Source of the DNA: Emiliania huxleyi CCMP1516
Taxonomy: Eukaryota
Length of the DNA stretch: 64,000 nt
Assembly: GCF_000372725.1 (NCBI RefSeq)
Contig: NW_005201912.1
Location: 124,001-188,000 of the forward strand
Reading direction: 5' to 3'
Below the pieces are notes generated by a model. That model saw only the letters and a list, made by a program, of their open reading frames with translations, was not told the origin of the DNA and made no database searches. How positions within the stretch are numbered: the first letter of the stretch is position 1; the number at the start of each line of letters is the position of its first letter. Positions 5,508 to 57,191 of the stretch are shown one piece after another. Both the position numbers and the translations under genes were made by a program.

Positions 5508-8176
5508 TGTGTGTGTGTGTGTGGTGTGGCGAGCACCGTTCCGTGGCAGAGCAACTTGAGGCGCCGCCCGGCCCAGCCCTGCGAGGGTGTGGGACGCAAG
5601 TGGTGGGCTTGGGCGAGCTGCAGTGGAGCCGGGCGGACGGCGGGAAGTGACTCGGAGGCGTCCGCGCACCGGCCGCAGCGCGAGCAATGCCGAGGTGAGC
5701 GAGCCGACCGTCTCGACCGCAGGGGGTCTCCCAGCAACCTCCACCGTCTCTCCCTGCAGCGTGTTGACCGCATAGCGGTGTGCGCAAGCGGCCGGCGGCG
5801 CCGCCGTCGACCCCGCCCCCGCCCCCGCTGCGCTCCTCGCCGCCGCCGCCGCCTCTTCCTCCGCCCGCACCGCCGCCAGCACACCCGCCGGGGGGGTGTA
5901 GGGCGGCTGGGGCAGCGGGCTCGGCTGTGTCGGCGGGGCGGCTGCGGCGGCGTCGCCGTGGCCGAGCGACGCGTTGAGGGGGCGGCCCATCGCCTGCAGG
6001 GTGGTGGGAGGGGGGGGAGGGGAGGGGAGGGGGGTCGATCTCGCGCAGATCTCGCGCAGATCTCGCGCAGATCTCGCGCAGATCTCGCGTGATCTCGCGC
6101 AGATCTCGCGCAGATCTCGCGCGATCTCGCGCAAGTCTCGCGCAGGACTCGCCTCGAGGAGGGGGCGCAGCATCTGCCCCATCGGAGACGCGAGCACGGC
6201 TCTCGGCAAGTCGAGTATATGCTGCGGGATTCCTGCACACGAGGGCTCCGACGCAGGCTCAGGAGGCAAGGGCCCGCCCCTTGGCAGGTCGGCGGTGTGC
6301 CGCGCTGTGCCGACGCCCAGCAGGAACTGCGCACACTCGTTCGAGAAGTGGTTGCAGTTGTTCTCGAGCAGCGAGTACGCGTCGGCGGAGAAGCGCGCCG
6401 CGCCAACCTCGTCGCAATACTCGTCGAACACCTCGTGGGAGGAGACGCTCCAAAGTTCGCCGAGGCTCTCCGAGGCTCCCCGAGATTGTCCGAGATCGCC
6501 CGACGTCAGCGTCGCCGGGGCTCCCCGAGATTGTCCGAGATCGCAAGTCGCGCCAGCACAAACCTCGCGCGGCAAACTGGTGCGGCCCAGCTCGAGAGTC
6601 TGGTGGACAGGCAAGCCCGAATGCGCGGTAAAGGCGCCTAGCGACGTGTCTCGGACATGTCCTGGACATGTCCTGGGCATGGCCCGAGAGCGCGGCAAGG
6701 CGGCAAGGGTTGCCGAGCGGCTCCCGCTGCACGCCTCCCGAGAAGTAGTACTCGCGCCCAAACACGCCGACCCCTGCAGAGGCTGTCCTCGCTTCCTTAG
6801 TGGGGCGCAGGGGGTGAGGCCTGCTCCCCTCGCCCGAAGACGCCGCCCGTGTGCGGTATGATCTCCACGTCGATGCCGAGCAGTGCCTGCGGAAGCTTCC
6901 GAGAAGCTTCGGGGACGCTTGCGGCGAAGCTCGACGGACTCGCACAGCTGCTTCGCGAGCGCCTGCGCCATGCCGCGCGCCGCGCCGCCCGACAAGTCGT
7001 ACACGTAGAGCACCACCGGCTCGCCTGCGGGGGGGGAATAATAATAATAACATAATTATATTGTTAAGACTATAAGAGCAGCACCGGCATGCCTGCGGGG
7101 GAGAGGCCCCGCGGACAAAGGCTCGGAGGGAGAGGAGCCCCCAACCGCGCGCAGCGCAACGCTCGCCCTCTCGCCTGCCCCGTCACCGGCGGAAGCAGCC
7201 GACGGCACAGCCGACGGCACCGCCGAGGCGGCGGGAGCGACCACCGAGGCGGCGGGAGCGACCGCGGCGGGCGGTGCTGCGGCCGCCTACGAGGAGAAGT
7301 CCGAACGCCTCCGGGGAAGAGTCTTGTGCGGCCTTATGGGCTCGTGCCGGCCGGCCGCCGCAGCCAGAGCCGGAGCCGAGGCGAGGGCGAGGGCGAGAGC
7401 GCGTCGGGCGTCGCCGAGAGCGACCGCGTCCACTCCCGGCGGTAGGACCATGCTCTCGCCCTCTTCGCGGAAGCCGATCGCCGCGAGGAGCGGCATGCCG
7501 TGCGCGGCGACGATCCGCTGCTTGACCGCCTCGTTGGACGCCTTGACGCGCCTGAGGCGAGCCGGGCCCGGGGTGAGAGGCGGCGGCGGACCTCTCTTGA
7601 TGACCTCGACCTCCCTTGATTACGCGCCGGAACTTGGGGTCGGCGGGCGATGCGATGACGTTGTCCACCAGCTTGAGCACCGTGCTCAGCGCCGTCCGCG
7701 CGGCGGGCGGCGAGTTGCGCCGCAGCACGTCCGCGATCGCAGCGTCGCACGCGGCCTTGTCGATGCCGGCGGCGGCGGCGTGCTGCTGCACGAGCGCGCG
7801 CAGCGCGGCCGGGTTGGCGCCCTGGAGAGCGCCGACCTGCACGGGGTGCACACGTACATCGGCGCCGCGGAGAGGAGCGGGTACACAGGGCACATCCAGC
7901 ATTTCCGGGGGTGCAGTGGCGCACCTCGCGCGCGCCGCGGAACACCTTGAAGGTCGGCATCGCCCGGACACCGCACTCGGCCGCGGTCTCTTGGTTCGCG
8001 TCCACATCCACCTTGCAAAAGATGGCCGCCGGGAACTCGCCCGCGAGCTGCTCGAAGGTTGGAGCGATTGCCCGGCAAGGACCGCACCACGACGCAGTGA
8101 AGTCGACGATAACCGGCGTGTCGCCAGCCTCGGCGAGGAGAGAGCGGAACGCCTCGAGCGTGCTTGGCTGCCGCAT
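5117..8176 (-). CDS. Multi-exon thioredoxin-PUB-PPPDE(DeSI peptidase)-ubiquitin-like fusion protein
   Basis: ATG at 8176. Thioredoxin VIVDFTASWCGPC. PUB domain STVLKLVDNVIASPADPKFRRVKASNEAV...LLAAIGF. PPPDE motifs VVLYVYDLS, GVGVFGREYYF and YSLLENNCNHFS. C-terminal UBL LKLLCHGT|VLADPNQTLATVGLDVGATLVAF, last exon 5206-5117. The PUB-to-PPPDE splice is inferred. Confidence 0.8.
6036..6142. repeat. Intronic 11-bp tandem repeat (AGATCTCGCGC)
   Basis: Direct observation, inside an intron of the PPPDE gene. Confidence 0.9.
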
Positions 8177-8438
8177 ACAATACCCAAGCCGACCTGCCGC
8201 CGTCCGCACCGCCTCCACCGCTCGCTCGCGGGATGTTCAGCGCGATACAGAGAAAAAGAATTGGAGGGGGCCTCGAGAAAAAGAAAGACGGTGACCCCGG
8301 CCTCGGGGCGGGGTGCGCGCTGTTGTGCCTCTGGTGCTCGTGCATCGCCCACTCTATCTATTTACATATTGGGGGCCTCCAACACAACTCAAGCAAGTGC
8401 CGAACACTCGCCTCGCGAATCGGCATGAGGCGCACACT

Positions 8439-8489
8439 ATGTCCATGTCCATGTCCATGTCCATGTCCATGTCCATGTCCATGTCCATG
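8439..8489. repeat. (ATGTCC)n hexamer repeat
   Basis: Direct observation. Confidence 0.9.
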
Positions 8490-9145
8490 TTGTACAACAA
8501 TGAGAGCGAGCGCGCAACAGTCCAACACATGTGCATGCACATGATACATGATGTGCATGTGCATATGTCCACGTCCACGCCCATGTCCAGTCCAGTCCTG
8601 ACCTATCCTATCCTACTCGGCCTCCAGCAAGACCCACACGGCTCGGAACGACCCCCACGGCTAAGAACCTGAGGCTCGGCCCAGGACGGAGCACCAACTT
8701 AGCTAAGAACCTGAGGCTGGGCTAAGAACCCGTGCGTTCTTAATGCCCGTCCGGAACTGTATGGAGGTACGCTCGGCGGCCCAAAGGGGTGGGGGTAGTA
8801 TGGTCCTGACCGCCCAAGACTAGCCCTCCCATACCCCCAAGCAGGTCTGCCAGCAGGCGGGGGGGTATGGTCTTGAGCAGTTGAGCTGGGTTGGCCGACG
8901 TACCATACCATACACACCCCGATCCTGGGGAACTAGCCGGGGCAGTCGGAGAAGGGGCAACTCCGTGCACTGACGGTCGGCCGCCAGAAAACACGCCTGC
9001 GTGGATCGCGTCACACCAATCCTCGCTACCCAACGCGGCCAAAGGATAGGTAGGTAGGTAAAAAGGATATCCACCTCGCACGAGAACCATACCCCGCAAA
9101 AAGTTGGAACCCACAGCGATTTGGCTTCGTCGAGCGTGTCCACCG

Positions 9146-9513
9146 ATGAGCGCCTCCACCGATGATCCCTTCGACGTCTTCGAAGGTCCGGCGAGCGATC
9201 CTTTCGACGTCCTTGGGGTTCCAGCAGCTCCAGCAGCGCTGTCTTCCGGCGAGTTGCCGACCCGCCCAAAGCGGCCGCGGCCGTCGCCGGTCTTGCCTCT
9301 TGTGCAGCGCTTCGTCTCGCAGCATGCGCGCACGACGTGCGCCGACCTCGAGGCGGCCGGCGACTCGTCGCTGGCGTTGCTGCTCTCCGAGGCTGCCGGC
9401 CACCTCTCTGCCGATCCGCCTGCGACGGAGCGCTGCCGTGAGGTGGCGGAGCGGGCGTCGGCTTCCGCGTGGGTCGCTCTGAGTGAGGAGAGCGGCAGCA
9501 GCGGCGGCGGCAG

Positions 9514-9545
<32 letters not shown>

Positions 9546-11523
9546 CGCAGCGGGCGGCCTTGTCGCGGGAGGCGTATGTCATCGCGCAGGTTCTTCTCTG
9601 CGCGAGCCGGCACGCCGCGGGCGACGCCTCCGCCGCGCTGCGCAGCCTCGACCGCGCCTTCATCGTCGGCGGCGAGACGCAGCTCCATCGCGACTGCGTT
9701 GAGCTCCTCGAGGAAGAGGCGACGCCGCAGCGCGCAGAGCCCAAGCCGCCGCTGCCCTCACGAGGGCTACACTCGGTGGAAGCGGCGGCGGCGGCGGCGG
9801 CGGCGGCGGCTGCGGCGGCGGCGGCGGTTGGCTCCTCCGGGCCGCCAGCGCCTCCGTCCTGCTCACGGCTCGAGAGGGTGCCGCCTCCTCGAGGCGACGC
9901 CTTCCGCGCGCTGCGGCGGCGCGGGCTGCCGCTGCTCATCGACGGCGTCGCCTCGGAGTGGGCTGCGATGCGCCGGTGCCGACTGAGTCGATGCACAGAG
10001 AGCAGACGCCTCGGGGTAGAGGGGTGGGCAGCGGGGGGCGGGGGCCTCCTCGCCTTGCGGCGCACAGTGAAAGGTGCTGGTTCAGTGGCCGGCCGTCGGA
10101 GTGTCCCCTCGGCCCCCGTCTCTTCTCGCCTCTTCTCGTCTCTTCTCGTCTCGCCTCGTCTCGTCTCGCCTCACCTCGCCTTGTCTCATCTCGTCTCATC
10201 TCGTCTTCTCTGCCGCCCCTGGCCCCACTGCGCCGCCGTGAGCCCAGGTGGGCCGACTTTTCGTGGCTGCGCGACGAGTTTGGGGGCCGGCTGGTGCCTG
10301 TCGAGCTTGGCTCGCTCGCCGGGGGCGGAGCGGCCGGCGGGGGAGGGGCGGCGGCGTGGGGCGAGCGGGTGTTGAGCGTGCGCGACTTCTCAGCGCTGTG
10401 ACCGATGCCCCTCCACACCACCAGCTGCGAATAGGTCATGAGCTTGCGCGATTTTCTCGACGCGCACGTGGCGCGCTCGCCGCCGCCACCCCTCGCCGCC
10501 GCCACCCTTCGCCACCACCCGTACAACCACAACTGCCCTCCACCACCCGCGCCACTGACTCCCTCACCGCCACCGCCACCCCACCACCACCACCACCACC
10601 ACCACCACGGCCGCCCTCTCCGCCTCCACCCTCGCCACGGCCGCCACCATCACCGACCCGCGCCTCCGGGATAGACGGCGGGCGGCGGCGAGGCGCGGAC
10701 TGGCTACCTTGCGCAGCACCCGCTCTTTGAGCAGATCCCGCGGCTGCGGCGTGACTTTCGCGTGCCGGAGCTCTGCACGGCGGGCGGCGGCTCCGTCCGG
10801 CGCGCACACGCGAGGAGGGCTGCCACACAGGAGCTTGCCGTGACCCTTCTCTGACCCCCGCCGGGAGCTGTCGCAGGCACACCAACGCGTGGCTCGGGCC
10901 GGAGGGGACGGTGACGCCGCTCCACTTCGACTCGTACGACAACGTGCTCACCCAGGCTCTCCGCGCCAGCGCGCAAGCCCACCGCTTCGGACGCCCCCCC
11001 CCCTCCCCCAAACACACACACACACACCACCACCCCTGCCTCGCCGATCCGACCTCCCCCCGCATGACGTTTCTTGGAACCTTCCCGCCGCAGGTGGTCG
11101 GCTACAAGCGGGTCGTCCTCTTCCCCGCCGAGCAGACAAAGTGGCTCTACCCAAAGGAGGCGGGCGGCGGCGGCGTCGACGCGCAGGGCAACGTGAGCGC
11201 CGTCGACGTCGAGGCGCCCGCCACACCCGCCACACGCAACCACGCCAGCAGTCGCCCCCGCCGCGTGTGCATCGTGTGGGCCCTTGGGTGGGCCTTGCGC
11301 AACCCGCGGGGGCTCTTGCCCGATGCGGCGGAGAGGCCGCTTCGCGGGGGAGAGCCCCGACTCTTGCCTCTAGGCGCCCGACCTCGAGCGGTTCCCCGAC
11401 TATGCGCGCGCCGCGGGCCTCGAGGCCGTCCTCGGGCCGGGGGACGGGCTGTACATCCCGGCGGGCTGCTGGCACCACGTGAGGAGCCTCACCGCGGCCT
11501 TCTCGGTGAGCTTTTGGTTCTGA
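9146..11523 (+). CDS. JMJD5: JmjC-domain 2-oxoglutarate oxygenase, JMJD5/KDM8-like (multi-exon)
   Basis: Motifs GYLAQHPLFEQIPRLRRDF, NAWLGPEGTVTPLHFDSYDNVLTQ|VVGYKRV and VLGPGDGLYIPAGCWHHVRSL...FSVSFWF*. The HxD...H iron triad is intact. Confidence 0.9.
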
Positions 11524-11680
11524 GTCTTGATAACGTCAAGACAAAGAGCCGCAGTCCGATTTCTTTTGCTTGTACTTTTAGAGTTTTTCCGGCTGTGCCT
11601 GTCGGTGGGGGTCCTTGCTCGCGCGGCTTCTCTCGCCTCTCGGCTGAACTCCGAACTCCGTGTCCGCCGGCCGGGGGGGC

Positions 11681-11764
11681 AAGAAAGAAAGAAAGAAAAC
11701 AGACAACTCAAGGGAGGGATGGGAGGACGGCACGCCGCCACCACACAGGGATTTTAAGGAGAGG
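11681..11764 (-). mobile_element. Family M retroposon 3' end with (TTTC)n tail, copy 1
   Basis: Near-identical to copies at 12589, 23783, 26097 and 50193. Confidence 0.85.
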
Positions 11765-11949
11765 GTTTCGCAGTCTCTCAGCAACCAACCAAAAATGCTT
11801 CGAACGCCAGGTGTAATTCTTTTTTTTTGTTTGGGGCGGACAGCATGACGGGGTAGGTAGGGTAGGTCTGGGCCCTCCCGTCGGGTTTTTCCCTCTCTTC
11901 GCGCCGGAATCTTCACAGCAGAAAAAGAATTTTTTCCGCCGAAATCACG

Positions 11950-12418
11950 ATGTCAACCCTCCCCAAGTGGGTGATCTGAGAGAGATTTTTATTAACCAAC
12001 GAGCTCTCCAGAAAACTGGTGCCTCATATGCTGCCTCCCTGCGGATGCTGCCGGCGAGCCTGGCGGTCCGCTGTACTACAAGGATGTGCTGACTCGATTT
12101 CTACTCGAATTCTTCTACCCCCACGACTCGGAACGCGAATGTGACAGGACCATCGGGTCCTTCAGCCTCCAAAGCGGGATCACTCGAGAGCAGCTGAGCC
12201 TGCCTCGGGCCTCGCCTCCCTCTCCTTCAGGCATTCGTGGCATCCTATGGGTCGTCCAGAGTATCGACCTCTGGCTTGTCAGTCGCGGTCACTTGATGAC
12301 CCCCATGAAGTACAGCGATCGCCATCTCGCTGGCCTCTCCGCAGGCCCCCCCGACCGCGTCGAACTCATCGGCGCGGGCTCTCTCGGCTACGGGACCGGC
12401 CCCAGCAGCTTCGGCTGA
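11950..12418 (+). CDS. Possible small hypothetical gene between two M copies
   Basis: ATG at 11950 follows GAAAAAGAATT. An open frame reads ENWCLICCLPADAAGEPGGPLYYKDVLTRFLLEFFYP...SSFG*. No domain recognised and the splice is uncertain. Confidence 0.3.
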
Positions 12419-12588
12419 GGGCTAACAAGCTGCCGAGCCCAAATCACTGTGAGAGTCGTTCGTGATTTCTTGGTGATCTGTCACTCTAGTTGGTAGAGTA
12501 CTCAACCTTCACCGCATCCGGATTTCTTTTTGTTTCCCTTAACTAGGGTATTTGTTTGTATCATGCTGTCCGCCCCACAAGCACAAAA

Positions 12589-12758
12589 GAAAGAAAGAAA
12601 GAAAACAGACAACCCAAGGGAGGGATGGGAGGACGGCACGCCGCCACCACACAGGGATTTTAAGGAGAGGTGTGTGGTGCGCTATCCGTCGCCCACCCTA
12701 GGGAGTCTGCCTCTTCCTATCTCTCTTCGCAGTCTCTCGCTGATTCTCGCTGCAATCT
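12589..12758 (-). mobile_element. Family M 5'-truncated non-LTR retroposon, copy 2, with 12-bp TSD
   Basis: TSD ACAAGCACAAAA at 12577-12588 and 12759-12770. The minus strand carries an ORF end [23 protein letters not shown], then a 3'UTR and (TTTC)n. Confidence 0.85.
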
Positions 12759-12892
12759 ACAAGCACAAAAAGAATACACCTGCGAACGCCAACTATTTTT
12801 TCCACGCGCGAAAGTTCCTGGTGGGCTGGACCTGTGCTTCTCTCCTCGCTGCCAGCAGCTGTCCCTCGAGTAGCCTCGGGCTATACCAGACA

Positions 12893-15236
12893 ATGCTCTC
12901 CCTGCTCTCCCTGGCGCTCGGGCTCAGCCTCCTCACGACCAGCCGTCCGCCGGCACCGCGGGCCGCGGCGCGCCTCGCCGCCTCTTCTGCGCCGTCGTTC
13001 AGCCTGCCCTCGCCGATCGAGACGCTGAAGCGGCTCAGCTCCGCAGAGGCCCGCGAGCTGCAGCGGGAGCTGCTGGAGCTCGCCTTCGAGCAGGACCCGC
13101 AGGTCGTCGTCCGGCGCTCGCTCGACCTTGCGCGTGCGGTCCGCGTCGTCGGCTCCGAGACGGTGCAGGGCCTTTCCTCGGCCGCAGCTGCGCCAGAGCC
13201 GCCCGTGATCCTGCGGCGGATGTGCGAGGAGCTTGGTGCGACGTACGTCAAGCTCGGGCAGTTCATTGCGTCGTCGCCGACGCTCTTCCCGCCCGAGTAC
13301 GTGCAGGAGTTCCAAAAATGCCTCGACGCGACGCCGCCGATGCCGTGGTGCAGAGCAGAGCATACACACATGCAGAGGCGGAGGTCGGGTCTCTTCTAGG
13401 AAGGTTCGTCGGAGCCCTCCGCATAGGTCCGACGTCAAGGAGATCGTCGAGGCGGAGCTCGGCCGTCCCATCGGCCAGGTCTACGCGTCGGTCGACGAGA
13501 CGCCTCTGGCTGCCGCGTCGATAGCGCAGGTGCACCCCGCTGGCCACGGCCCGGAGCGCGGCACAGTGCCCTATCACACCGCTCATCCGACTGGCCGGGG
13601 CTAGCGGTCGAAGACCCGTGCGTGGCAAGGCGGGGATCCCGAGCACATTCCGTCGCCCCTCTCTTCTTCCTCGTCTTCAGGTGCACGCGGCCAGGCTGCT
13701 CAGCGGGGAGGACGTCGTTCTCAAGGTGCAGAAGAAGGGCGTGCAAGGGTCGCTCAAGGCGGACCTCGACCTGCTCTATGCGAACGCGCGCGTGCTGCAG
13801 CTCCTCGGCGCAGCGACCGCACTAGCGGTTCGGAGGAACGCCCCTCGCCTGCCCTCCAGGAACACCTCTCGGAGCCGCCCTGCAGGCGTCGTGACCGCCG
13901 AGCTCTCGGACGTGGTCGCGACCCTTCGCTCGGCGATCCTCGAGGAGAGACTAGACCTGCGCTCGCGGCAGCAGCGAGACGCGACGAGCACGGAAGGACC
14001 CGCCTCACGTGTGGATGAATAGGAGATCGACTTCGTGCTCGAGGCGCAGCGCACGCAGCTAGCTCGCCGAACTCCTCCCTCGTCTCTGAACCGTCTAGGA
14101 CCCTCCCGCAGGCGCAGCGGACGGAGCAGTTCGCCGAGTTCCTCGCTCGCTCGCCGGAGCTGGACGGCGTCGTCACCGTGCCCAAGGTGTACCGCGCCGC
14201 CTCCGCCTCGCGGCTGCTCACGCTCGAGCGCCTCTACGGAGTGCCGCTCATCGACCTCGAGTCGGTGCGCGAGTCTTTGGCCGGAGGTGGCGAGACACCG
14301 AGCCAGAGTGGCGGGTGCTGAACGCAACAGGTGCGCAAGTACCAGCCGCAGCCTGAGCTGGCGCTCATCGTCGCGCTAAACACGTGGGTGAGCAGCGTGC
14401 TGACCAACGAGTGGTTCCACGCAGACGTGCATGCCGGCAACCTGCTCGTCCTCACCGACGGCCGAGAGTAGCGGAGACTCGCCCCTAGCCGAGCATTGAG
14501 CCGACTCTTGGACGAGACCACTCCTTCTCGCCCTCCTTCTCGTCCCTCGAGCCGCGTCGGATTCACCGGCGGACTATGTGAAGCCTGTGTGTGTGGACCC
14601 TTCTCGGAGCTTCCCTGCAGGCCGGGTCGCCTTCATCGACTTTGGGATCGTCGGCGCCATCCCCGCCGCCACCGCGGAGGGGATGCTCGACTTCGTGCGC
14701 TCCTTCCCGGCGGGCGACATGGCTGGCGTCGGCCGCGCGCTCGAGAAGATGGGCTTCACCAAGGAGCTCTCGGAAGAGCAGTCCGCCGCCTTCGCAAAGG
14801 ACATCGGCGAGGTCATCGCCTCGATTGACAGCATGACCGCCGACATCGCGACCACCGCGAGCGCGGGCGCCGCCGCGAGCGCCATCGACGAGACGCAGCT
14901 GAACCGCGCGGTCGCTGCCGTCGCGCGCGTCGCCGAGGGGTGCCGGATCCTAGCTGCTTTGGCGATGCACTGCATTCTTGCAGCCTTTGGTCTGCGCCCC
15001 TCAGTCCACCGCGGTCTGCCCTCAGGTACGGGATCCGCTTCCCGCGCGAGTTTGCGCTCCTCATCAAGCAGGTCCTGTACTTCGACCGGTACACGTCTCT
15101 GCTCGCGCCCGGCCTCGACGTGCTCAACGACGAGCGGCTCTCGATGAACCGGCCGCCGGGCGACGGCGGCGTCTCTAGTGTCGAGGGCGGTAGTGTTGCC
15201 GTTGAGGTGCTGCCGCCGGAGGACGATGCGGAGTGA
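12893..15236 (+). CDS. ABC1/UbiB-family atypical kinase (ABC1K), likely plastid-targeted, multi-exon
   Basis: Signal-like N-terminus [14 protein letters not shown]. Motifs [43 protein letters not shown] and [10 protein letters not shown]. Confidence 0.92.
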
Positions 15237-15351
15237 GAATAGAGGCTGGAGAGAGCCAAGTACGGGGAAGAAAAACGCCAAGTTTGATTTCTTTCTTTTT
15301 TGGGCGCATTCGGAGGAAATATTTGTAAAGGGACCGCACTGGCGCTCCTTC

Positions 15352-18821: not shown

Positions 18822-19932
18822 TTAGCGCAAGTACCCCAGCCCGGCCAGCCGGCGGAGCTGTTCGTAGAGCGGCAGCGTCATCAAAAAGATGGGCGCCAGC
18901 TTGGCGTACTGCGGGCCGAGCCCGCGCCAGAGCGACAGCACCCCCTCCCTCCTCACGAGCTGGGAGGCGCAGTCGCCGACGCTGCTGTAGTGCGCGCCGA
19001 CGGCGGGCGCGCCCTGGTACCTGTTGAGGACGATGTCCGGCGGCAGGGAGAGCACGGCGGCGCAGCCGGCGGCGAGGAGGGAGCAGAGCACGTGTGTGCC
19101 GGCGCCCTCGGCGAGTCCGTTGGCGCGGACGGCGCGCTGGGTAGGGGCGGAGGAGGAGTGAGGGTGGCGGGGAGGCGGCGAAGGCCGAGGCGAGGGCGGC
19201 CACGCCTTCGCTGCGTCGTAGCCTCCAAGCTGGCCCGCGGAGAGGGCGCCGCCACTGGAGGGGGTGGCAGGGAATACGGTCACGCGCGCGAATCCGGCGG
19301 GCGGCGGACGAGGCATGTGTGTATGGCCCCCATGGACAGCACTCACCGGACGAAGAGCGCGGACACGCCGCGGTAGTGGCCCGCCCATCCGGCGGAGCGG
19401 CTGACCAACGCCAGCGACGCGGCGAGGGAGGAGGAGGAGGAAGGGGCGGACTGCTGGAGCGCCTTGACGTTGAAGAAGGGGCAGGCGAGGCTGTTTGTGA
19501 GAGCACCCGTCGAGAGGCCCGCCGCAAAGGCGGTCGCCGGCGTAGAGACGCCTGAGGCGCCCTCGATGGCGTCGCGAAGTGGCTCGTACAGCACCATGCG
19601 GCAGCTATTTCAAGGGACGATTTGAGTGGTGAGACGGGGATGCGGTGGTCGGTGCGAGCGGTCGGCCTGAAGGCGACGCCCATCGACGCCATCCAAGCAG
19701 AGACGCCGGGCTGCATCAGCCCGCGCACCAAGCCTTCATCCCGGGCGAGGCGGAGAGCAAAGTCATAGACGGACGGCGGCCGTGTCGCAGCCGATTCAAG
19801 CTGAAAGCGAACTCGGATCACCTCCACAGGGTTGGTCGCGGCGGCGGCAATGGCAGCCGTGGTGCCGGCACACGCGAGGCGGCGAAGCGCGACGAATTGC
19901 GGCTGCTGATTGTCGGACTGGACACTCAGCAT
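18822..19932 (-). CDS. Mitochondrial carrier (SLC25) family protein, multi-exon
   Basis: Three Px[DE]xx[KR]xR-like repeats: NPVEVIRVRFQ, CPFFNVK and LPPDIVLNRYQ. Also EGVLSLWRGLGP. Confidence 0.9.
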
Positions 19933-21417: not shown

Positions 21418-21525
21418 NNNNNNNNNNNNNNNNNNNNNNNNNNNNNNNNNNNNNNNNNNNNNNNNNNNNNNNNNNNNNNNNNNNNNNNNNNNNNNNNNNN
21501 NNNNNNNNNNNNNNNNNNNNNNNNN
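21418..21525. other. Assembly gap (108 N)
   Basis: Run of N. Confidence 1.
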
Positions 21526-23782: not shown

Positions 23783-23844
23783 TTAAAATCCCTGTGTGTT
23801 GGCGGCGTGCCGTCCTCCCATCCCTCCCTTGGGTTGTCTGTTTC
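23783..23844 (+). mobile_element. Family M retroposon 3' end, copy 3
   Basis: Matches the other M copies; lies 14 bp beyond the HET-LRR stop codon. Confidence 0.85.
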
Positions 23845-23858
23845 AAATAAGGTGTGCC

Positions 23859-26025: not shown

Positions 26026-26096
26026 ACACACAGCAAACCAAAGGCGGCCGGAGCAATGCACGAAAAAGAATTTTCCGCACCCCCTCGCACAACACT

Positions 26097-26168
26097 TTAA
26101 AATCCCTGTGTGGTGGCGGCGTGCCGTCCTCCCATCCCTCCCTTGGGTTGTCTGTTTTCTTTCTTTCT
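26097..26168 (+). mobile_element. Family M retroposon 3' end, copy 4
   Basis: Matches the other M copies; lies 71 bp upstream of the HET-LRR ATG, at the break in the upstream retroelement ORF. Confidence 0.85.
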
Positions 26169-31264: not shown

Positions 31265-32325
31265 ATGGTGCACCACCGTCAGTCCTCGTGCACACCCTGA
31301 CACCGTGTGGCCTGCACACCCTGACACCGTGTGGCCTGCACACCCTGACACCGTGTGGCCTGCACATCCTGACACCGTGTGGCCTGCCTGACTCTAGGCG
31401 ACCACCGTCGTCACCGTCGAGGACGTGCTCTGGGCGGAGGATAGCTTCCACGCAACACCAAACCACATCCGAGTCCGCCTCAGCTGCCGCACGCCCGCCA
31501 TCTTGGTCGACCGGAAGACCAATGTGATCGTGGCAGCGAACGTCGCTTGGCAAGACCAGTGCGGCTACCGTGCCGAGGCGATCGGTGCTACTCCCAAGAT
31601 CCTCGCGGGCGAGCGCACCGACGCTGCCAAGGCCGCTCGCTTCACCCAGCGCGTGTACGGGCGCGAGGGCCGCGCCGGGACGACACTCGTCAACTACCGT
31701 TCCGATGGCACACCCTTCCTGCATACGATCACGGCCAGCCGGATCGGCGACTTCTTCCTGGCGAAATCGACGCGGTCGATCGACCTGCAGACCGCCTCCG
31801 CGCCCCACCTCGGCGCCATCGGAGTCGCGCTCCTCGCCGCGTGCGTGCTGATCCACCTCTTCTCCGCCGTCTCCAGCGTCGGCGACTCCGCCACGTCGAC
31901 CGGGCCGGCCTCGCCGCCGCTGCCGGCCGACCGCATCCCAGTGCACGGCGTCGCTTCCGCCTTTGTCGCCGCCGCCCTCGCGCACCAGCCATTCTTCCAG
32001 CCAAAGGCGGCCGCTTGACGCCTGCTCGTGCACTAAGCCCCTCTCCCAGCCCTTTTTCTTGCCATAGGCGGCCGACCCTCCCGCCCAGATCGACTCCTCG
32101 TCGGCCCTCGTAGCCGAGGGCGCCCCCGTCGTGGGCATCTGCCTCCTCGCCCTCCTCGTTGCGGCGATGTGGGAGGAGGAGTCCGCAGCGGCCAAAGTCA
32201 ACGACGAGGACGACGACGACGAGATCGACGTCGCCGGCTCACATTTCCTCGGCCCGGTGCCGCTGGTCGAGGTCGTGTTCACGGCCGCGATCTGCCTCTT
32301 TCTGGTCGCCCAAGGCCCGCAGTAG
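31265..32325 (+). CDS. PAS-domain membrane protein, 3 exons
   Basis: ATG|GT intron 31268-31397. PAS/PAC IVAANVAWQDQCGY...IGATPKILAGERTD...LVNYRSDGTPF, followed by several hydrophobic segments. Second intron ~32007-32067. Confidence 0.75.
31289..31384. repeat. 24-bp tandem repeat x4 (TGCACACCCTGACACCGTGTGGCC), intronic
   Basis: Direct observation. Confidence 0.95.
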
Positions 32326-36680: not shown

Positions 36681-38593
36681 TCATTGGTCGAAACTTTTGA
36701 GGCTGGTCCCGGCGGCGCCTCGCTTCTGCCTGTTCCACCAAGCCATGTACTCGAGAAAGTTGACGAGCCTACGAGGGACGTACGTACGATGGGGGGCTCC
36801 GAGGCGGCCCTGAGAAGGGCCATACCCAGCCGCGGCATGCTCGCGGGATGATGACCCGTCCCCGTTCGTGTCCGCATCGCGCAGCAGCTCGTCGCCGCAC
36901 GCCGCCGCGAGCTCCTCCGCCGCAACCTGCTCACAGCGTGTGGTGTGAATAGACGCTCCTCTCTCGGATGCCCGCGCAACCCAAGTAGCTGTCGGCCCAG
37001 GCAACCCCCGGGTGCGTGTGATCTAAGTGGGGCGGTGGTCGGCGGGGTGTGCTGGTGGTACCTGCCCGTCGCCGTCGCCGTCGATGCTGTCGAACGAGGC
37101 GCGGCAGACGTCGAGCAGCTCGTCTCTGCTGAGTGCGCCCGACCGGTCCTGGTCGAGGGCGTTGAAGACGAGGCACGCGTCGCCCAAGTAGTAGGCCTGC
37201 AACGGCGGCACGTAGCAGCGCCCCTCGCTCGGGTACCGCACGCTGCCTGTCCATACAAGTCTCGGACATGTCAAGGACGTGTCCTGGACATGTGCAGTGG
37301 CCACCGCACACGCCACCGTCGGGCTCGAGCTCGTATATCAGCGGCAAGCCGTTGGGGAGCCCGAGCGACGGAAGGCTCTCGTCGTCGACGTTCTGCTGCA
37401 CGCACGCCACCAGGGCGCGCAGCCCGTTGGCATGGCCGACGACGAGACAGTTGGAGCCTAATCCCGGGTAATCTTTGGGGTAATCTCGGGTAATCTCGAG
37501 CCGGCGTGGCCGACGAGGCATCTGGAGCCGTCCAGCAGCGCGGGCAGCAGCTCGTTCTCCCAAAACGGGCGCACGCGCGAGACGCAGTCGGCGATCGACT
37601 CGGTGAGGGGCACGTCTTCGTCGCGGAGCGGCTCGCCTGCGCGGCCGGGCTCCGACTAATCTCGGGTAATCTCGGGGACAATCTCGGTCTCGAGCAGCCG
37701 CCTGCACAGTCGGGCTCCGAGAAGGGGTCATGGAGAAGGGGCCATCGACCAAGAGGCGCCTCCTCTCTCAGCGACGAGGGTCGCCGTCGGCGTTGGCAGT
37801 GCGCAGCGCCGCCAGTCTCTCGGGCGAGCGGCTGTAGAAGGGGTGGTCTGCCGCCATCGGAGGCGGCCTGCCGCGCGAGGCAGAGGCGCCGGGTGAGCGG
37901 TGGGAAGCTGGTCAGCCGGGGACCACAGAGGCGGCCTGGGCGGGCTTGCCACATCTAAATCTCACCTCCCGGCAAAGGAGAGGCGCCACTCGCGGAGCGC
38001 GGCTGGGTCGGGCCACTTCTCGAGCGTGTCGCGCTTGTCGAGCCCCTGCAGGGGCAGGGGGGCGGCGAGGACTCGCGGCAGCGCAGAAGGGAGGGTTGCG
38101 TCAGGGATGCGGCTACGCCTGCAGCATCCCATAATGCCGCTCGTTTAGGCGCCACGTCGGCAGGATCGGCGGCGGCGGGCGCCCGTTCCGGCGGAGTGCC
38201 TCGACGCAGAGACCTGCGGTGCGTAGGGCGCGGCCAAGCACGCTGGTGTACACGGTGTCGATGCGAACATCGCCCGCCTCGGTGAGGAGCAGCTCGGCAG
38301 CGGTGCGCGCCTCCTCCTCGCCTCGGGGCGTGAGCGGGACGTCCTCCCTGCGGAACGGCGCCGTGGTAAGCCAATAAGGTTACTTCCCCCTGGATTGGCA
38401 GGTGGCGGATTGGCGGTGTAGGCAGAGTGTCTCGGAGACAGTGCTCTCACCAACCAGTGAAGCGTCCAGCAGCGTTCCACGCGGACTCGCCGTGACGGAG
38501 AAGGACGAGGCGGCCGGGCGTGGTCAGAGCTGCTGCTGTGGATGCCGCGAGCTGAGCCAGGATGAGGAGCGATCGGCTCCGCACTGCGCCCAT
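36681..38593 (-). CDS. Cofactor-dependent phosphoglycerate mutase-like histidine phosphatase with signal peptide and C-terminal EF-hands
   Basis: LVLLRHGESAWNAAGRFTGW|DVPLT, VYTSVL, RLNERHYG, ESIADC..RV.PFW and LVVGHANGLRAL. EF-hand loops DQDRSGALSRDE, DGDGDGQV and DTNGDG. Confidence 0.88.
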
Positions 38594-41603: not shown

Positions 41604-43351
41604 TCACCGCGAGTCAAACTCGGACAGGATGTCGTTGAGCTCGTCCTTCCCGCCTGCGGGAAGGGTTCGGGCGGGCAGGGCTTCGGACGACGAGGGTTGA
41701 CAAGTGCGAGGGCAGAGGCAGGGTCGGCTGCGGGGGAGGGGAGGCGGGGCGGAGCGGCGCGCCCTGGTCGAGGATCGAGCCGAGGGAGAGCTCGGAGACG
41801 TTCTTGTCGCGGAGCTGGGAGGCGGAGCGGCGGAAGTTGAGGCCGAGGTCGGTCATCGAGGTGGCCTTGAGCACCGACTCGAGGTTGAAGTTCGAGCTGA
41901 GCGAGCTCGCCAACGGCAGCCCCGACATCCGGAAGGAGGCGCTGTCACCGAGCGGCAACCCCGCGCCGAGCCTCCCCTCGTGCGCATCCGCCAGCTGCTG
42001 CTCGAGCGCCGAGAGAGAGCCCATCGCACCGAGCTCCGCGAGCGGCGGGATACCGCTCTCGTCCTGAGCACCACCGACCCTCGCCGCAGCAGGCATGTCC
42101 CACGCCGCCGCAAGGTCGGGGTCCACGCTCTCCTCCGCGCCGCCGTCGAGCTTGCGCCGCTTCTGCCGCGACGCGGCCCCACCCCCGCCCTCCTCTCTCG
42201 GCGGAGCGCCTGGCAGCCTCGTCACCTGAGAGCGGGGACCGAAAAGCGCTTAGGGGGGGGGGGGGGGAGAGCTGACTACGTGTGTCTCGGAGGTGTCGGA
42301 GGTGTCTCGGGGGTGTCTCGGAGGTGTCTCGTGCCTCAGCGAGCTGCTGCAGCGCCTCGCGCGGCGACACCCACTCGACCCGCCCGTCCTTCCACCTGAG
42401 GAATGGTACGGCGAGGTGAGGCGTCTCCACACGCGAGTGCGGGCAAGGGCCGGCCCTCCCCCCCGCGTCTCTGCGTCCCAAAGAGGCGGCAGTGAGAGTG
42501 CGAGAGGGCCCTGTGCACCTCGGCAGCAGCTGCGAGCTCTTGAGGAGGGGCTCGACGTAGAGGGCCTGGCACAGCCCCGGAGCCTGCGCACGCGCGGCGG
42601 CGGGCTGCGCTCAGCTCGAGCCAAACAGGAGAGGGCGTTCGTGGCCGCGGGCAGGGGTGGGGAGGCGGTGCAGCGGTGGTGTCGCAGGCTCGAGGCGCGT
42701 TTGGCAGGCGCCGCCGCGCCGCGGGCGCCCTCTCTCGGGGAGGTGGCGAGCCTGCGTGTTGGCCTGCTGCGAGGCGCCGGCCGCCGAGTTGTGGTCCACC
42801 GCGTCGCGGTAGTCCTTGAGGTACGCCCACATCCGGCACAGCGCGCAGCCCTGCGCTTGCGCGGCAGTGCAGCTGCTGACGTGCGCGTGCAGGCGCTCGA
42901 GCTTGGCGGTGAGCGGGACGCAGCCGGGGACGGGGCAGGAGGGCGTGCGGCAGTGGAAGCAGTGGATCAGCGACGCGCGGAAGTCCTCCTTGTCCAGGCT
43001 GTCGATCAGCGGCAGCAGCTCCGCAGGGAGGGAGCCGCTCCCCCCCGCCTCGCTTCCGGAGGCTGAGGGGGAGGAGGAGTCGGCGCCGGAGGAGAGGGCG
43101 GGCGCGGGGACGGGCGCCGTGGCGGAGCGCTCGATGAGCGCGTTGACCGCCGCGGTCAGCTGCTGCCTCGTGGCCAACTCGCCCATCCGCCGCTTGACGG
43201 CGGCCTGCTCCTTTGGGTTGTCGCGCGCCTGCGCAACGAGCCGATCGAGCTCGGGCGCCTTGTCGGCGGACACGTGGTTCTTGAGCTCGTCGATCAGCGC
43301 AGGCAGCGTCACGGTGACCGTTGTCGCCCCAGAGGGGCCGGGAGCAGGCAT
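41604..43351 (-). CDS. TAZ zinc-finger protein with RST-like N-terminal helical domain
   Basis: LIHCFHC...CPVPGC...LHAHVSSC...CALC. The 3' exons are inferred and end ...DELNDILSEFDSR*. Confidence 0.75.
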
Positions 43352-51791: not shown

Positions 51792-53135
51792 ATGTTGACC
51801 CTTCAGGCGCCAGAGGACATCGACCGCCACATCACGCTCGATGTGGCGACGGGCCAACCCGTTGTGATAGACGCCCTCGGCCCTGTCGTCGTCAACAGCG
51901 ACGGCACCCTCTCGCGGATAACGAACTGGGAGCGGATGGAGGAGAGCGAGAGGGATGTGGCGAAACGGCGCATCTCCAAGCGCAACGTCGAACGGCTGCG
52001 GGCCTTTCGCGACAAGGGCGAACTCAAACAGTCTCTCGTCTCTGCTCTTGCTGCCGCCAGCTCAGACGGTGCCGCCAGTGGCGATGCCGGCGGCGGTGGC
52101 GCCGAGGGTCGCAACGCCTCGGGCTTCCGCTTCTCGATCGACCGCGGCGGCACCTTCACCGACGTATACGCGCTCTGCCCGGGCGAGGCGGTGCCGCGCT
52201 GCGTCAAGCTGCTGTCGGTCGACCCGGCCAACTACCCGGACGCGCCGCGCGAGGGGATCCGGAGAGTGCTCGAGGCGGCGACCGGCGTGCCGCACCCGCG
52301 CGGCGAGCGGCTGAACTCCTCGCGGATCGAGTGGATCCGGATGGGGACGACGGTGGCGACCAACGCGCTGCTCGAGCGTGACGGCGCGCGCACGGCGCTC
52401 CTCGTCAGCAAGGGCTTCGCCGACGTGCTGCACATCGGGTCGCAGGCGAGGCCCGACATCTTTGACCTCCGGGTCCGCTGCCCGGGCGTGTTGTACGAGG
52501 CGGTGGTGGAGGTGGACGAGCGAGTGGTGCTCGCGAAGAGCGAGCCTCCCGGCGAAGAGTCGGCGGCGCGGCGGGGCTTGCGGCGCGTGCGGGGCGAGAC
52601 GGGGGAGCAGGTGCGCCTCGGGAGGGAGCCGAGCTGCAGGAGGGCCATATCTCCCCATATCTCCCCAGATCTCCCCACATCTCCCCAGGTGCTCATCGAG
52701 AGGGAGCCGGACTTGGACGCGCTGCGGGGCAAGCTTGCTGCGCTGCGGGCGTCCGGAGTCGAGGCGGTGGCGGTGGTGCTGATGCACGCGTACACATACC
52801 GCCAGCACGAGGAGGCCGTGGCGGCACTGGCGCGCGAGGTCGGCTTTGCCCAAGTCACCACCTCCTCCTCGACGCTGCCGATGGTGAAGCTGGTGCCGCG
52901 CGGATACACCGCCACCGCCGACGCGTACCTGACGCCGCACATCAAGGCCTACCTCGCGTCCTTCGTCGCGGGCTTCGACGACGACATCAGCAAGGTCGAG
53001 ATTTCGTTCATGCAGTCCGACGGAGGCCTCGCGCCCGCCGACTCGTTTTGCGGCTTCCGCGCCGTCCTCTCGGGCCCCGCGGGAGGGTACATCGGGTACG
53101 CGAAGACAGCGCACACGCCAGGCGGCCCGCCTGTG

Positions 53136-53174
<39 letters not shown>

Positions 53175-56100
53175 AGGTACGCGGGCAGCGTCGAGCAGGT
53201 GTTCGAGGCGCGGCTGGCGGGCGTCACGATCCAGGCACCGCAGCTCGACATCAAGACCGTCGCGGCGGGCGGCGGCTCGCGCTTCTTCTTCCGCGAGGGG
53301 CGGCTCGCCGTCGGGCCGCAGTCTGTGCGCGCGCACCCCGGGCCGGTACTCCGCCGCGCGGGGCGGGCTCGGGCCTCGGCTTTCTTCCTCTCCACCCCCG
53401 ACGCCATCTCGCTGCTAGGTTTGCTACCGCAAGGGCGGCCAGCTGGCGACCACCGACGCCAACCTCCTCCTCGGCCGCATCCGGCCGGAGCACTTCCCGC
53501 GCATCTTCGGCCCGGACGAGGACCAGCCGCTCGACGTCGAGGGCACGCATGCAGCCGAGATCTGGCCGAGATCTGGCCGAGCTCTGGCCGAGCTCTGGCC
53601 AGCTCTGGCCGAGATCTGGCCGAGATCTGGCGAACGAGGGCGAGCCGCTCTAGCTCGAGGGCCTCGAGGCCGCGCGCCCGTCGCGGCTCTCTGTTGATCG
53701 CCAGGCTGGCGCCCCTTCTTTTTCAGGCACGCGCGCCGCCTTCGAGGCGATGCTGAGCGGCGAGGTGCACCCCTTCTACGAGGCGACATCGCCCGCCGGC
53801 GCGCCCCCTCGGAGGATGAGTGTCGAGCAGCTCGCGCACGGCTTCCTCGAGGTTGCCAACGAGGCGGTCGCGCCGCTCCGCGAGAGGACGAGTCCGGGAC
53901 ACGTCCGCGACATGTCCGAGACACGTCCCACAGGCGATGTGCCGCCCGATCCGCGAGATGACGCAGATGAGAGGCCACGACGCGGCGGCGCACGTGCTCG
54001 CCTCCTTCGGCGGCGCGGGAGGCCAGCACGCGTGCGCCGTCGCGCGCTCGCTCGGCATGACGCGCGTGTACGTGCACCGGCACGCCTCCATCCTGTCCGC
54101 GGTGGGGATCGCCCTCGCCGACGTGGTCGTCGAGAAGCAGGAGGCGGCCGCGCTGACGCTCGGTGAGCCGGGTGCCGCCGAGCGCGTCTCCGTGCGCCAC
54201 GCTGCGCTGGCGGCTGCCGTCGAGGAGCAGCTGGCCGCGCAGGGCTTCGCGCCGCCGCTGCTGCGGACGGATCGCTTCCTCAACTTGCGCTACGCGGGCA
54301 CCGACACCGCCATCATGGTTTCGGAGCCGGCGGCAGGCGGCGGCGCGTACGCCGCCGCCTTCGAGGCGCAGCACCGGCGCGAGTTTGGCTTCACCTTTGC
54401 GGAGCGGCCCGTCCTGATCGACGACATCCGCGTGCGCGGCACCGGCCTCTCCCCGCCCGCGCCCGCGGCGCCGACTGCGGCGGCGAGCGGCGCGCTGCCG
54501 CCGCCGACGAGCGTGGGCCGGACCTACTTTGAGAGCGGGTGGGAGGAGACGCCCTCGTACTCGCTGCAGTCGCTCGCGCCGGGCAACGTCCTCGAGGGGC
54601 CGGCGCTGCTGCTGGACGACATCTCGACGGTGGTGGTCGAGCCGAACTGCACCGCCACAGTCACGGCGACGGGCCACCTCGAGATCCTGGTGCGGCCGAG
54701 GAAGGGCGCACGAGGCGAGACGCGGACCGGCCCTGAGGCGCAGCGGGGGGCGGAGGCGGCGCCGGCGGAGGGCGCCCCCTCGCCGAGCGGCGATGCGGAC
54801 CCGGTCCAGCTGTCGCTCTACTCGCACCGCTTCATGGGCATCGCTGAGCAGATGGGGCGGACGCTGCAGCGCACGTCGGTCTCCACAAACATCAAAGAGC
54901 GGCTCGACTTCTCGTGCGCGCTCTTCGACGCCTCCGGCGGGCTCGTCGCCAACGCGCCCCACATCCCCGTCCACCTGGGCGCGATGCAGGACGCCGTGCA
55001 GCTGCAGCAGCGGCGGTGGGAGGGCGACATCAACGCGGGCGACGTCTTCCTCTCCAACTGCCCGCACACCGCCGGCGGCTCGCACCTGCCCGACCTCACC
55101 GTCATCACGCCTGCCTTTCTGCCCGGCGACGGCGACGCGCCCGCCTTTTGGGTCGCCTCGCGGGGGCACCACGCGGACATCGGGGGCGCGACGCCCGGCT
55201 CGATGCCGCCCTTCTCCCACTCGCTCTCCGAGGAGGGCGCGCGGATCGTCGGGTTCCGGCTCGTCTCGCGTGGTGCGCGGCGGGACGGATCGGCCGCTGC
55301 GCCCCGTCCTCGCCGCGACCGTCACCGACACCTTTTGGTAGGAGTGCTGCAGGAGGAGGGCGTGCGCTCCATCCTCGCCAAGAGCCGCAACCTCACCGAC
55401 AACCTCTCCGACCTCAAGGCTCAGGTGGCCGCCAACGAGATGGGGCCTGCAGCCGCTTGCCCCCTCCCTGCCGCCGCAGCTGCGAAGGGCGCCTCATTCA
55501 CGGCCCGCGCTGTGACCAGGCTGCGCCTCCTCGCCTCCCTCGCCGCCGAGTCGTCGCTCGCCGCCGTCCGCAGCTACATGCACCACATCCAGGCGAACGC
55601 AGAGGCGACGGTCCGCGCAATGCTTCGCGCCTTCGCCGCCCGAGCCGGCCTTGGCGCAAACGGCGCCTGCGCGCCGGCCGGCTGCTGGACAGACGCGAAG
55701 TCACGGGAGAGGACTGGAGATCGCCGGAGATTAGGCGTCTGCACCGCGGCCGACCAGCTCGACGACGGCTCGGAGATCCGGCTCGCGGTCACCATTGACG
55801 CGGCGGCGGGATCCGCCACCTTTGACTTTTCCGGCACCTCGCCACAGAGCTATTCGAACCTGAACGCGCGCCGTGCGCCGTCGCGTGCTCGTTGCACCGT
55901 GGACAGCGTCTGTGTCCACACTCTGTCCGTGAACAGGCGCCGCGCGCCGTCACGTACTCGGCCGTCATCTACTCGCTCCGCGCGCTCTGCGACACCGACA
56001 TGCCCCTCAACCAGGGCTGCCTCGCGCCAGTCACCTTCGTCCTCCCTGAGGGCAGCCCCTCGCCGCCGCCAGGGCCCGTCCTTCCCCGGACACGTCCCGG

Positions 56101-56886
56101 ACACGTCCCGGACGCGTGTCCTCGTAGGCTGCCTCCTCAACCCCGGGGAGACCGCCGCTGTCGTCGGCGGGAACGTCCTCACCTCGCAGCGCGTCGTGGA
56201 CGTCGTCCTCAAGGCGTCCTGACGCGTGCAATCTCGGGCAATCTCGGACAACCTCGGGTCATCTCGCGTCATCTCGCCGCAGGCGTTTGGCGCGTGCGCG
56301 GCCTCTCAGGGCTGCATGAACAACCTCACCTTTGGCGACGAGACTTACGGCTACTACGAGACCATCGCCGGCGGCGCGGGCGCCGGGCCCGACTGGGACG
56401 GCCGCTCGGGCGTGCACACGCACATGACCAACACGCGCATCACCGACCCCGAGGTCCTCGAGCGGAGGCACCGACGGCCGAAACGCCCCGCCGTAGAGAA
56501 GGGAGACACGTGAGCGGAGTCGTGTGTCGAGTAGGTACCCGGTCGTGCTGCGCACCTTCTCCCTCCGCGCCCACTCGGGCGGAGGCGGCGCGCACCGCGG
56601 CGGCGACGGCGTCGTGCGCGAGATCGAGTTTCTGCGCCCGACGGACGTGTCCATCCTCTCCGAGCGCCGCGCCGTGCCCCCATACGGCCTCGCCGGTGGC
56701 GAGCCGGGCGTGCGCGGGCAGAACCTGCTGCTGCCCGCGGGAGGAGGCGCCGGCCCCACCGTCTCGCTCGGTGGCAAGGCCTTTGTCCGCGTCGAGGCGG
56801 GCGCGCGGCTGCGGGTGCTCTCCCCTGGAGGGGGCGGGTACGGCGCCCCAGCCGAAGCATACTCGGGCGGCAGCCGTGCTAAGTAG
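51792..56886 (+). CDS. OPLAH: 5-oxoprolinase (ATP-hydrolysing; hydantoinase A+B) with an extra N-terminal domain, multi-exon
   Basis: [95 protein letters not shown] and SPGGGGYG. The true start may be further upstream (~51577). Confidence 0.95.
53557..53632. repeat. Intronic 11-bp tandem repeat (AG[A/C]TCTGGCCG)
   Basis: Direct observation. Confidence 0.9.
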
Positions 56887-57191
56887 TAGCACTTGCTTTG
56901 CCTTACGCGTTTACGTCCCGGCCCGCGGTGCGAGCGGTGTGAGGTTTCTGTGGTTACTCTATGCAGTACCGTACTGCGCTTTTGACGGAGGTGAGCCGAG
57001 GGCAGTGGGTCTCTTGCGCCTCTCCGGCGCCCAAAGCTGTATTAAAATTGTGATGAGCATGAGGGAACGTGAGGGACATGCACATGCGCATACTCAAAGA
57101 GAGAGAGAGACCCACAGACTCGAGACTGTGTCAGTCTCAGAAGAGACATGCGATGCCACTCGCCCCACGGACACACACATGCAAAGTGCGA

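Follow-up and report, generated by a model that had tools for sequence, protein, structure and literature searches.

The ABC1K gene and the introns studied

The window analysed here is a 64-kb stretch of GC-rich eukaryotic DNA from Emiliania huxleyi CCMP1516 (contig NW_005201912.1), and all counts given below refer to this window and not to the genome. It carries, among others, an ABC1K (atypical kinase) gene and a 5-oxoprolinase gene, and many of its introns begin with a decayed copy of the start of the following exon. These copies, and the way in which they may have arisen, are the subject of this work. In the permutation tests, intron/exon pairs were permuted 20000 times, and the term anchored denotes a gapped alignment fixed at base 1. 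The features of the first gene are as follows:

12893..15237, + strand: ABC1K gene; spliced open reading frame (ORF) of 525 codons with eight introns, RNA joints, and PF03109 (ABC1) on two exons
13348..13426, +: intron 1, GT-AG, 79 nt; end repeat of 3 nt, anchored match weak (p 0.19)
13530..13680, +: intron 2, GT-AG, 151 nt; exact end repeat of 9 nt, decayed copy to about 30 nt (p 0.017)
13808..13885, +: intron 3, GC-AG, 78 nt; end repeat of 4 nt, decayed copy extending over about 40 nt (p 0.017)
13945..14022, +: intron 4, GA-AG, 78 nt; copy in intron bases 3-46, with 33 of 37 aligned bases identical, end repeat of 6 nt
14023..14043, +: micro-exon of 21 nt, from the RNA joint table
14044..14111, +: intron 5, GC-AG, 68 nt; bases 1-43 copy 14112-14152 (35 of 41 identical), end repeat of 10 nt
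14265..14330, +: intron 6, GT-AG, 66 nt; exact repeat of 7 nt, decayed copy (p 0.017)
14461..14620, +: intron 7, GC-AG, 160 nt; repeat of 5 nt only, longer copy not detected
14940..15025, +: intron 8, GT-AG, 86 nt; 9 of the first 11 bases match the exon (p 0.054), end repeat of 3 nt

Intron 5 is the strongest case of a copy. The GA donor of intron 4, the only one among the 64 introns considered, equals the GA with which its next exon starts. In intron 1, a local match pairs intron bases 28-65 with exon bases +23 to +65.

RNA contigs were aligned to positions 5560-15340 (four runs from four studies) and 51700-60280 (two runs). The runs over the ABC1K region are X1, X3, X4 and X7, RNA being on record for X4 and presumed for the other three. 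Six of the seven ABC1K joints are present in all four runs and the remaining one (13806|13885) in three; one joint holds the micro-exon. The joints listed were 15 of 30 in the first region and 15 of 19 in the second. After removal of one skip of 5190 nt, one back-joint and the joint 57961/58106, and after one joint had been split around the 21-nt micro-exon, the RNA-defined set consisted of 28 introns, eight of them in ABC1K. Each of the 28 admits exactly one G..AG placement with U2-type G(T/C/A)...AG ends, their donors being GC in 17 cases, GT in 10 and GA in one.

Since the automatic gene model had found only 15 of these 28 introns, further introns were read by hand from ORF continuity. This second set comprises 36 ORF-inferred introns, with no RNA and with donors picked by eye; five genes were verified as open frames, and five further probable introns with uncertain ends were excluded. 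A search for transcript-derived homologues by which the junctions of this set might be fixed returned none that were useful. RNA contigs also read through introns at 14435-14649, 10019-10276 and 59146-59873, in line with the frequent intron retention reported for E. huxleyi (PMC4028052).

Copies of the next exon at intron starts

The initial annotation had pointed to nine short motifs repeated at the two ends of introns, and all nine are found at both ends, either exactly or, where positions were approximate, within a few bases; the examples at 32005/32066 and in the PUB region belong to ORF-inferred introns and are not RNA-backed. At the RNA-defined junctions, the exact run shared by intron start and next-exon start is 2.89 nt, as compared with 1.70 nt in permuted pairs (0/20000; n=28), which bears out the expectation that repeat length would exceed that of shuffled pairs. 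The corresponding run between intron end and previous-exon end (1.54 vs 1.49 nt permuted; 6830/20000; n=28) is not significant.

The similarity extends well beyond the exact run. The anchored score is 19.1 vs 8.7 permuted (0/20000), with 15 of the 28 introns individually at p<=0.05; it holds when permutation is confined to the same gene (19.2 vs 9.8; 0/20000) and from base 11 onward (10.3 vs 5.2; 0/20000). Taken in register, similarity is highest at intron bases 3-22 (z 6.2) and continues at bases 21-40 (z 2.8) and 41-60 (z 3.0), with no similarity to the exon in the last 20 nt of the introns (z 0.1) or in an off-register control (z -1.0; n=28 for both). The match is locus-specific: in 18 of the 28 introns the exon start proper outscores all other G|GY sites 25-150 nt downstream. 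In the same set, neither the upstream exon (19.82 vs 19.83) nor reverse complements resemble the introns. In short, the repeats are intron-specific duplications, as had been proposed, and similarity exceeds chance for the RNA set.

GC-rich, low-complexity sequence aligns easily, and direct repeats are reported to flank a quarter of new and old Drosophila introns alike (PMC3443670). Nevertheless, an explanation by chance, from the G|G consensus and a GC content of 65-70%, is rejected in the RNA set by the across-gene and within-gene permutations and by the controls (local G|GY sites, the upstream side, reverse complements and off-register alignment). Template switching by reverse transcriptase at repeats runs against the single G..AG placement of every joint, the recurrence of the joints across studies and the long ORFs that they restore. 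Both explanations are thus scarcely credible.

The copies start in register at intron base 1 to 3. In the 12 strongest, the aligned length is 21-56 nt and identity to the exon 65-89%; changes from A/T to G/C are enriched (39 vs 24), though A/T makes up only 28% of bases. Mismatches by codon position (26/122, 27/128 and 16/123) show no third-codon excess, as expected for a copy that is not translated. The exact end repeats are the intact tips of longer, decayed copies of the first 15-60 nt of the next exon. Four of the 19 phased introns (13808, 52611, 55273 and the 55445/55663 type) can be read through in frame. Given that intron starts resemble coding sequence and are in some cases readable in frame, junctions slide and gene models fail in E. 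huxleyi.

It might be argued that selection for splicing maintains the similarity, for instance if the same factor or guide reads intron and exon starts, and similarity is indeed greatest nearest the splice site. However, the copies are specific to each intron and full of substitutions and indels, one of them having a strain indel in its first bases (in the wild-strain contig L001); many introns are spliced without a copy; and a search for a hairpin or complementary partner of the copies gave nothing significant. Such an explanation is very improbable.

Another possibility is that RNA was involved, either through messenger RNA- or cDNA-templated repair that overwrote the 5' parts of introns or through a lariat tail reverse-spliced at G|G and followed by fill-in. 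Either event would account for the anchoring at G|G, the one-sidedness and the unrelated tail of 20-30 nt. Short next exons offer a comparison between spliced and unspliced templates (n=8): unspliced DNA is the better fit for the two clearest copies (27 vs 13 and 25 vs 14) and the spliced form for two others, while four fit both about equally, none of the eight being significant. An origin linked to RNA is decidedly improbable.

Another RNA-covered gene repeats the pattern:

51795..56887, +: 5-oxoprolinase gene (Pfam), with 11 RNA-defined introns
55273..55341, +: oxoprolinase intron, 69 nt, GT donor; bases 5-61 copy exon bases +5 to +64 (46 of 52 identical)

Eight of these 11 introns (52611, 53543, 53864, 55273, 55445, 55663, 55866 and 56214) have individually significant copies. 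In the one at 55273..55341, the next exon begins with GA and the donor is GT. The spliced gene product is 99.8% identical to protein P0001, whose cluster contains proteins named Emiliania huxleyi. As side observations, the protein has about 110 additional N-terminal residues ahead of its first Pfam domain, and the introns of its gene cluster, codons 578 to 1024 holding none and codons 1024 to 1278 seven. The intron at 53543-53726 (+) has more than its 5' copy: the end of the upstream exon is copied in it, and behind this the first ~50 nt of the next exon are copied once again; by their arrangement, these extra copies look like a later duplication across the donor.

The ORF-inferred set also carries the signal, though more weakly, as seen in the anchored score (z 4.5; n=36), the within-gene permutation (20/20000) and a donor-independent test (z 2.8), and seven of its 36 introns are individually significant. 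Between genes, the copy pattern ranges from strong to weak. In the intron at 19137-19205 (-), the start has the look of one G plus a copy of a C-starting exon (40 of 53 aligned bases identical), and copies are therefore not confined to G-starting exons.

As regards age, the introns differ from those of the wild-strain contig L001 at 7 of 901 nt, and the copies differ from their exons by 11-35%. With divergence between strains so far below that between copy and exon, the copy events must be old; the copies are old, fixed in wild strains, and decaying. All 11 oxoprolinase introns are present in L001. A metagenome scan yielded 77 distant loci besides three contigs of the same species, with no sister-species haptophyte locus among them; the distant contigs are not haptophyte-like by GC content and intron style. 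Candidate introns, some of them artefactual, were seen in 19 of these distant loci and none lies at the 11 oxoprolinase positions, in a comparison of few, roughly mapped and intron-poor best-hit loci. Four distant oxoprolinase loci (L017, L028, L054 and L055) have common intron positions (query codons 454, 1269 and 1327) that are absent from the gene in the window. A scan of viral contigs for a related locus found nothing.

Donors, composite introns and the origin of the copies

The initial annotation had also held that the donor mirrors the exon, and this stands mainly for GC and GT donors. The second donor base equals that of the next exon in 22 of the 28 RNA introns (0.44 expected; 1/20000), and in both sets taken together 40 of 51 GC/GT cases have a donor identical to the exon start, so that donor type and first exon bases are correlated (Fisher p=3.6e-4). 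For the rarer starts the mirroring is partial or absent: GA-starting exons have a GA donor in one of four cases and GG-starting exons a GG donor in none of five, and poor borrowed donors were thus likely corrected later or never fixed. Next exons start with G in 60 of 64 cases, C or T following in 51 of the 60 (0.60 expected; p 1.7e-5). Donors across the 64 introns are GC in 38, GT in 25 and GA in one, a mix close to the published 56/40/4% for GC/GT/GA in E. huxleyi (PMC4028052 Table 3). In the coding DNA of the window, GG is followed by C in 46% and by T in 14% of cases (3.3-fold), an excess that would by itself yield a majority of GC donors if donors are borrowed from exons.

Some introns are composite. 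In introns of at least 95 nt, three of six internal YAG|G sites begin a second copy of the next exon, each of them ranking 1 of 64:

7025..7174, -: composite ORF-inferred intron; unit 7093-7174 precedes unit 7025-7092 (68 nt), whose next-exon copy starts at the internal YAG|G
37637..37784, -: composite ORF-inferred intron of a phosphoglycerate-mutase-like gene (label from a motif); a copy of the next exon opens each of its units, 37702-37784 and 37637-37701 (65 nt)
37868..37965, -: composite ORF-inferred intron; 30-nt stub with a canonical GTGAG donor, then a unit of 68 nt with the next-exon copy

The second units (68, 68 and 65 nt) have the size of the shortest introns, and taking out a single unit leads to a stop in five of six cases and to a frameshift in the sixth. 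From their sequence, the composites would show that copying also occurs exactly at an existing acceptor.

The interpretation favoured here, with a probability of about 0.55, is that many introns in the window begin with a decayed copy, 15-60 nt long, of the next exon because they were born by in-place duplication together with AG-ending filler, in a repair event of the break type. The coding stretch just downstream would be duplicated in place and followed by filler ending in AG, probably as a staggered DNA break was being repaired; such repair, already named in the initial annotation, is a plausible source. The duplicated unit would presumably be kept only if splicing removes it exactly, and to be spliceable it would have to start at G|G(C/T), end in AG and measure at least ~65 nt. 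As donor recognition in E. huxleyi is lax, the first two bases of the copy could serve as donor, and the GC majority would follow from the GC excess after GG in coding DNA. Units starting with GA or GG would mostly have changed later to GC or GT, and the copy would decay neutrally, often padded by 10-11 bp repeats.

Several results weigh against this interpretation. In the first place, an individually significant copy is absent in 13 of the 28 RNA introns and in 29 of the 36 ORF-inferred ones. In the ORF-inferred set: (i) donors were chosen by eye, which renders the anchored test partly circular; (ii) similarity past base 10 is not significant (1559/20000), bases 21-40 giving z -1.6; (iii) the donor match by itself is borderline (19/32; 1125/20000); (iv) a weak signal appears on the upstream side (z 2.1); and (v) in seven of the 36 introns the donor is a canonical GTGAG and a 5' copy is missing. 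Besides, novelty of the intron positions is only presumed: in the three close contigs, all of the same species, every intron spanned is present (11/11, 4/4 and 7/7). Finally, the scheme is weakest where the acceptor tail has to be accounted for, as random filler would rarely end in a working acceptor, and in two of the three composites the tail of the second unit resembles that of the first (ranks 3/64 and 5/64; the third, 33/64). The GTGAG introns devoid of a copy (38450, 37965, 39430, 47508, 19346, 25140 and 24938) are candidates for an older class of introns.

The likeness of tails favours the main rival, namely the renewal of old introns. Here, a tandem duplication over an existing acceptor would provide a second unit made of an exon-start copy and a copied acceptor; this unit would be spliced from a lax G|GY and the older unit deleted, leaving old positions with young sequences. 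The older unit would be lost easily if it already started with an older copy. Renewal agrees with the three composites, whose 65-68 nt second units are of minimum intron size, with the GTGAG stub retained in one of them, with the lack of exon similarity in the last 20 nt of introns, and with other tandem duplications across splice sites, such as the upstream-exon-end copy in intron 53543 and a 41-bp unit present three times at 47070-47193 (+), where it spans an apparent first exon end and donor. Still, most copies begin no more than 3 nt from the donor, and the older unit would have to be lost precisely every time; composites at about 5% (3/64) would also be expected, by our own estimate, if births took place at random G|GY sites, exon starts being among these; and shared tail motifs occur in unrelated introns too. 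Renewal is accordingly regarded as doubtful.

A different proposal, that each whole intron is a unit copy ending at a downstream AG|G, was tried and dropped. An AG|G lies 72-88 nt downstream in 14 of the 28 RNA introns, as compared with 4-9 in other distance ranges (this one having been chosen post hoc); the count in the ORF-inferred set is 9 of 36, without replication, and a 3'-anchored test gives 2008/20000.

The initial annotation had named introner transposons among the known makers of introns flanked by target duplications, and old mobile elements (introners or truncated non-LTR elements) with a 3' splice site and unusually long target duplications, whose families have decayed away, could in principle leave such introns. 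Their geometry is that of dinoflagellate introners, in which the duplication supplies the donor and the insert the acceptor, the next exon starts with G followed by C, T or A, and GA appears to give way to GC (10.1101/2020.10.14.339549; PMC9860276 Fig. 2B legend). Introners with 4-bp duplications are described in a Chrysochromulina metagenome-assembled genome (PMC9860276), and motifs of 13-25 nt are common to some intron tails in the window at similar distances from AG. On the other hand, the copies are one-sided and vary from ~15 to ~60 nt, as compared with 3-9 bp (PMC9860276), leaving as little as 8-25 nt for an element, and a short target-site duplication of the introner kind does not describe them. 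The suggested clustering of intron interiors into terminal inverted repeat (TIR) families found neither: the TIR test gives 9.57 vs 9.96 permuted (16664/20000; n=28), and an all-against-all comparison of the 28 RNA introns returned motif matches of 12-27 nt and no whole-intron match. The 10-11 bp arrays common to introns occur in both orientations (56214 vs 37458). An introner origin is unlikely, and old elements in general are an improbable source.

These arrays, detected by a simple motif test in 8 of the 64 introns, often begin where the exon copy stops; arrays lie at 52645-52687, 53554-53631, 53892-53928, 56085-56117, 56228-56266, 6037-6152, 6653-6681 and 42282-42331. The first is very deep in RNA contigs, and its motif must be common elsewhere. 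A TCGGAGC motif 12-20 nt ahead of the acceptor in unrelated introns (13348, 6233, 13808, 14461 and 37637) could, judging by its position, be a splicing signal.

Further introns belong to other genes of the window:

6233..6846, -: four RNA-defined introns of a PPPDE-like gene (label from motifs), two of them with significant copies
32007..32067, +: GC-AG intron, ORF-inferred, with a 9-nt repeat

The labels PUB/PPPDE, JmjC, PGM, DUF218, TAZ, PITH, MCF, LRR, SULT and Myb are working names taken from motifs; a Pfam scan of three exons so labelled gave no hit. Directly upstream of ABC1K, positions 11773-12426 have a very high summed contig depth and many variants, and constitute a highly repeated element, possibly transcribed. 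An intergenic sequence of ~70 bp was seen by eye in at least five copies, in both orientations (~11685-11760, 12590-12665, 23790-23845, 26095-26150 and 50195-50270). Assembly gaps (runs of N) lie at 2442-2541 and 21419-21525.

Relation to known modes of intron gain

The closest likeness is to the introner-like elements of Symbiodinium and Polarella (10.1101/2020.10.14.339549) and to introners (PMC9860276), where the donor also comes from a duplicated exon start and the acceptor from the insert, and where GC donors are frequent and some GA donors occur. Introners, however, have fixed duplications of 3-9 bp, terminal inverted repeats (in 72 of 177 families; PMC9860276) and families of hundreds, as opposed to variable copies of 15-60 nt with neither inverted repeats nor families among the 28 introns. 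The boundary repeats of dinoflagellates (IRIB; PMC5032977) are likewise intron-specific, surround GG at both ends and make junctions ambiguous, but they are exact, 2-11 bp long and, in the part of that paper available, described mainly on the side of the upstream exon; those reported here are downstream, long and decayed.

In the tandem genomic duplication of the Rogers type, an intron is also derived from adjacent coding sequence and the protein is unchanged. Since a segment around an internal AGGT is duplicated, that model calls for a copied upstream exon end and an exon ending in AG; it fails here, since the RNA set shows no copying of the upstream exon and no more than 12 of its 28 upstream exons end in AG. 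Its scattered cases (188 events in seven taxa; PMC3443670 Table 1) also contrast with about half of the RNA-defined introns here. Intron gain in Daphnia by repair of staggered double-strand breaks (via PMC3443670) is alike in its gap-filling direct repeat, its filler and its lack of transposon features, and a direct repeat flanking filler is found here above background, the last 20 nt being unrelated to the exon on average. In Daphnia, however, repeats are short and the insert makes the intron, whereas here the greater part of the intron is often duplicated sequence. The composites resemble the intron of a potato gene for RdRp (RNA-dependent RNA polymerase), formed by duplication over an intron-exon boundary with an exon-derived start and a copied acceptor (PMC4974935); that single case adds a piece of exon, whereas the unit here begins with the exon's first base and contributes no residues to the protein.

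GC donors and intronic repeats of 10-11 bp are said to be mentioned in the E. huxleyi genome paper. The literature searched, outside of which lay the genome paper and most subscription journals, yielded no description of exon-derived intron starts in E. huxleyi, and the name 'Emiliania' does not appear in the main text of PMC9860276, PMC12130899 or 10.1101/2020.10.14.339549 (the supplementary introner tables of the first two being outside the search). The GC-AG majority, with the same donor spectrum as in the window, is ascribed in the available part of PMC4028052 to genome GC content, without a link to the next exon. In any case, the recruitment of donors from target duplications in dinoflagellates and scattered intron gain by duplication or break repair are known; long one-sided exon copies as a common intron feature of E. 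huxleyi are, within the literature searched, new.

A wider proposition can be put forward only tentatively, at rather less than an even chance: that a transposon-free self-copying of the next-exon start, anchored at the splice site, creates or renews a large share of the introns of E. huxleyi, and that this causes the GC majority and stacks recursively spliced units of 65-68 nt on acceptors. Most gained introns are reported to have no identifiable source sequence (PMC4974935, 10.1101/051292), with transposons as the known bulk source. Of the RNA-defined introns here, about half still reveal their source, the neighbouring exon, without the marks of a transposon, and this would give a sequence-level cause for a GC-donor majority hitherto ascribed to GC content (PMC4028052). 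If the self-copying proposition is true, many introns of the E. huxleyi genome would still have their source sequence legible next door.

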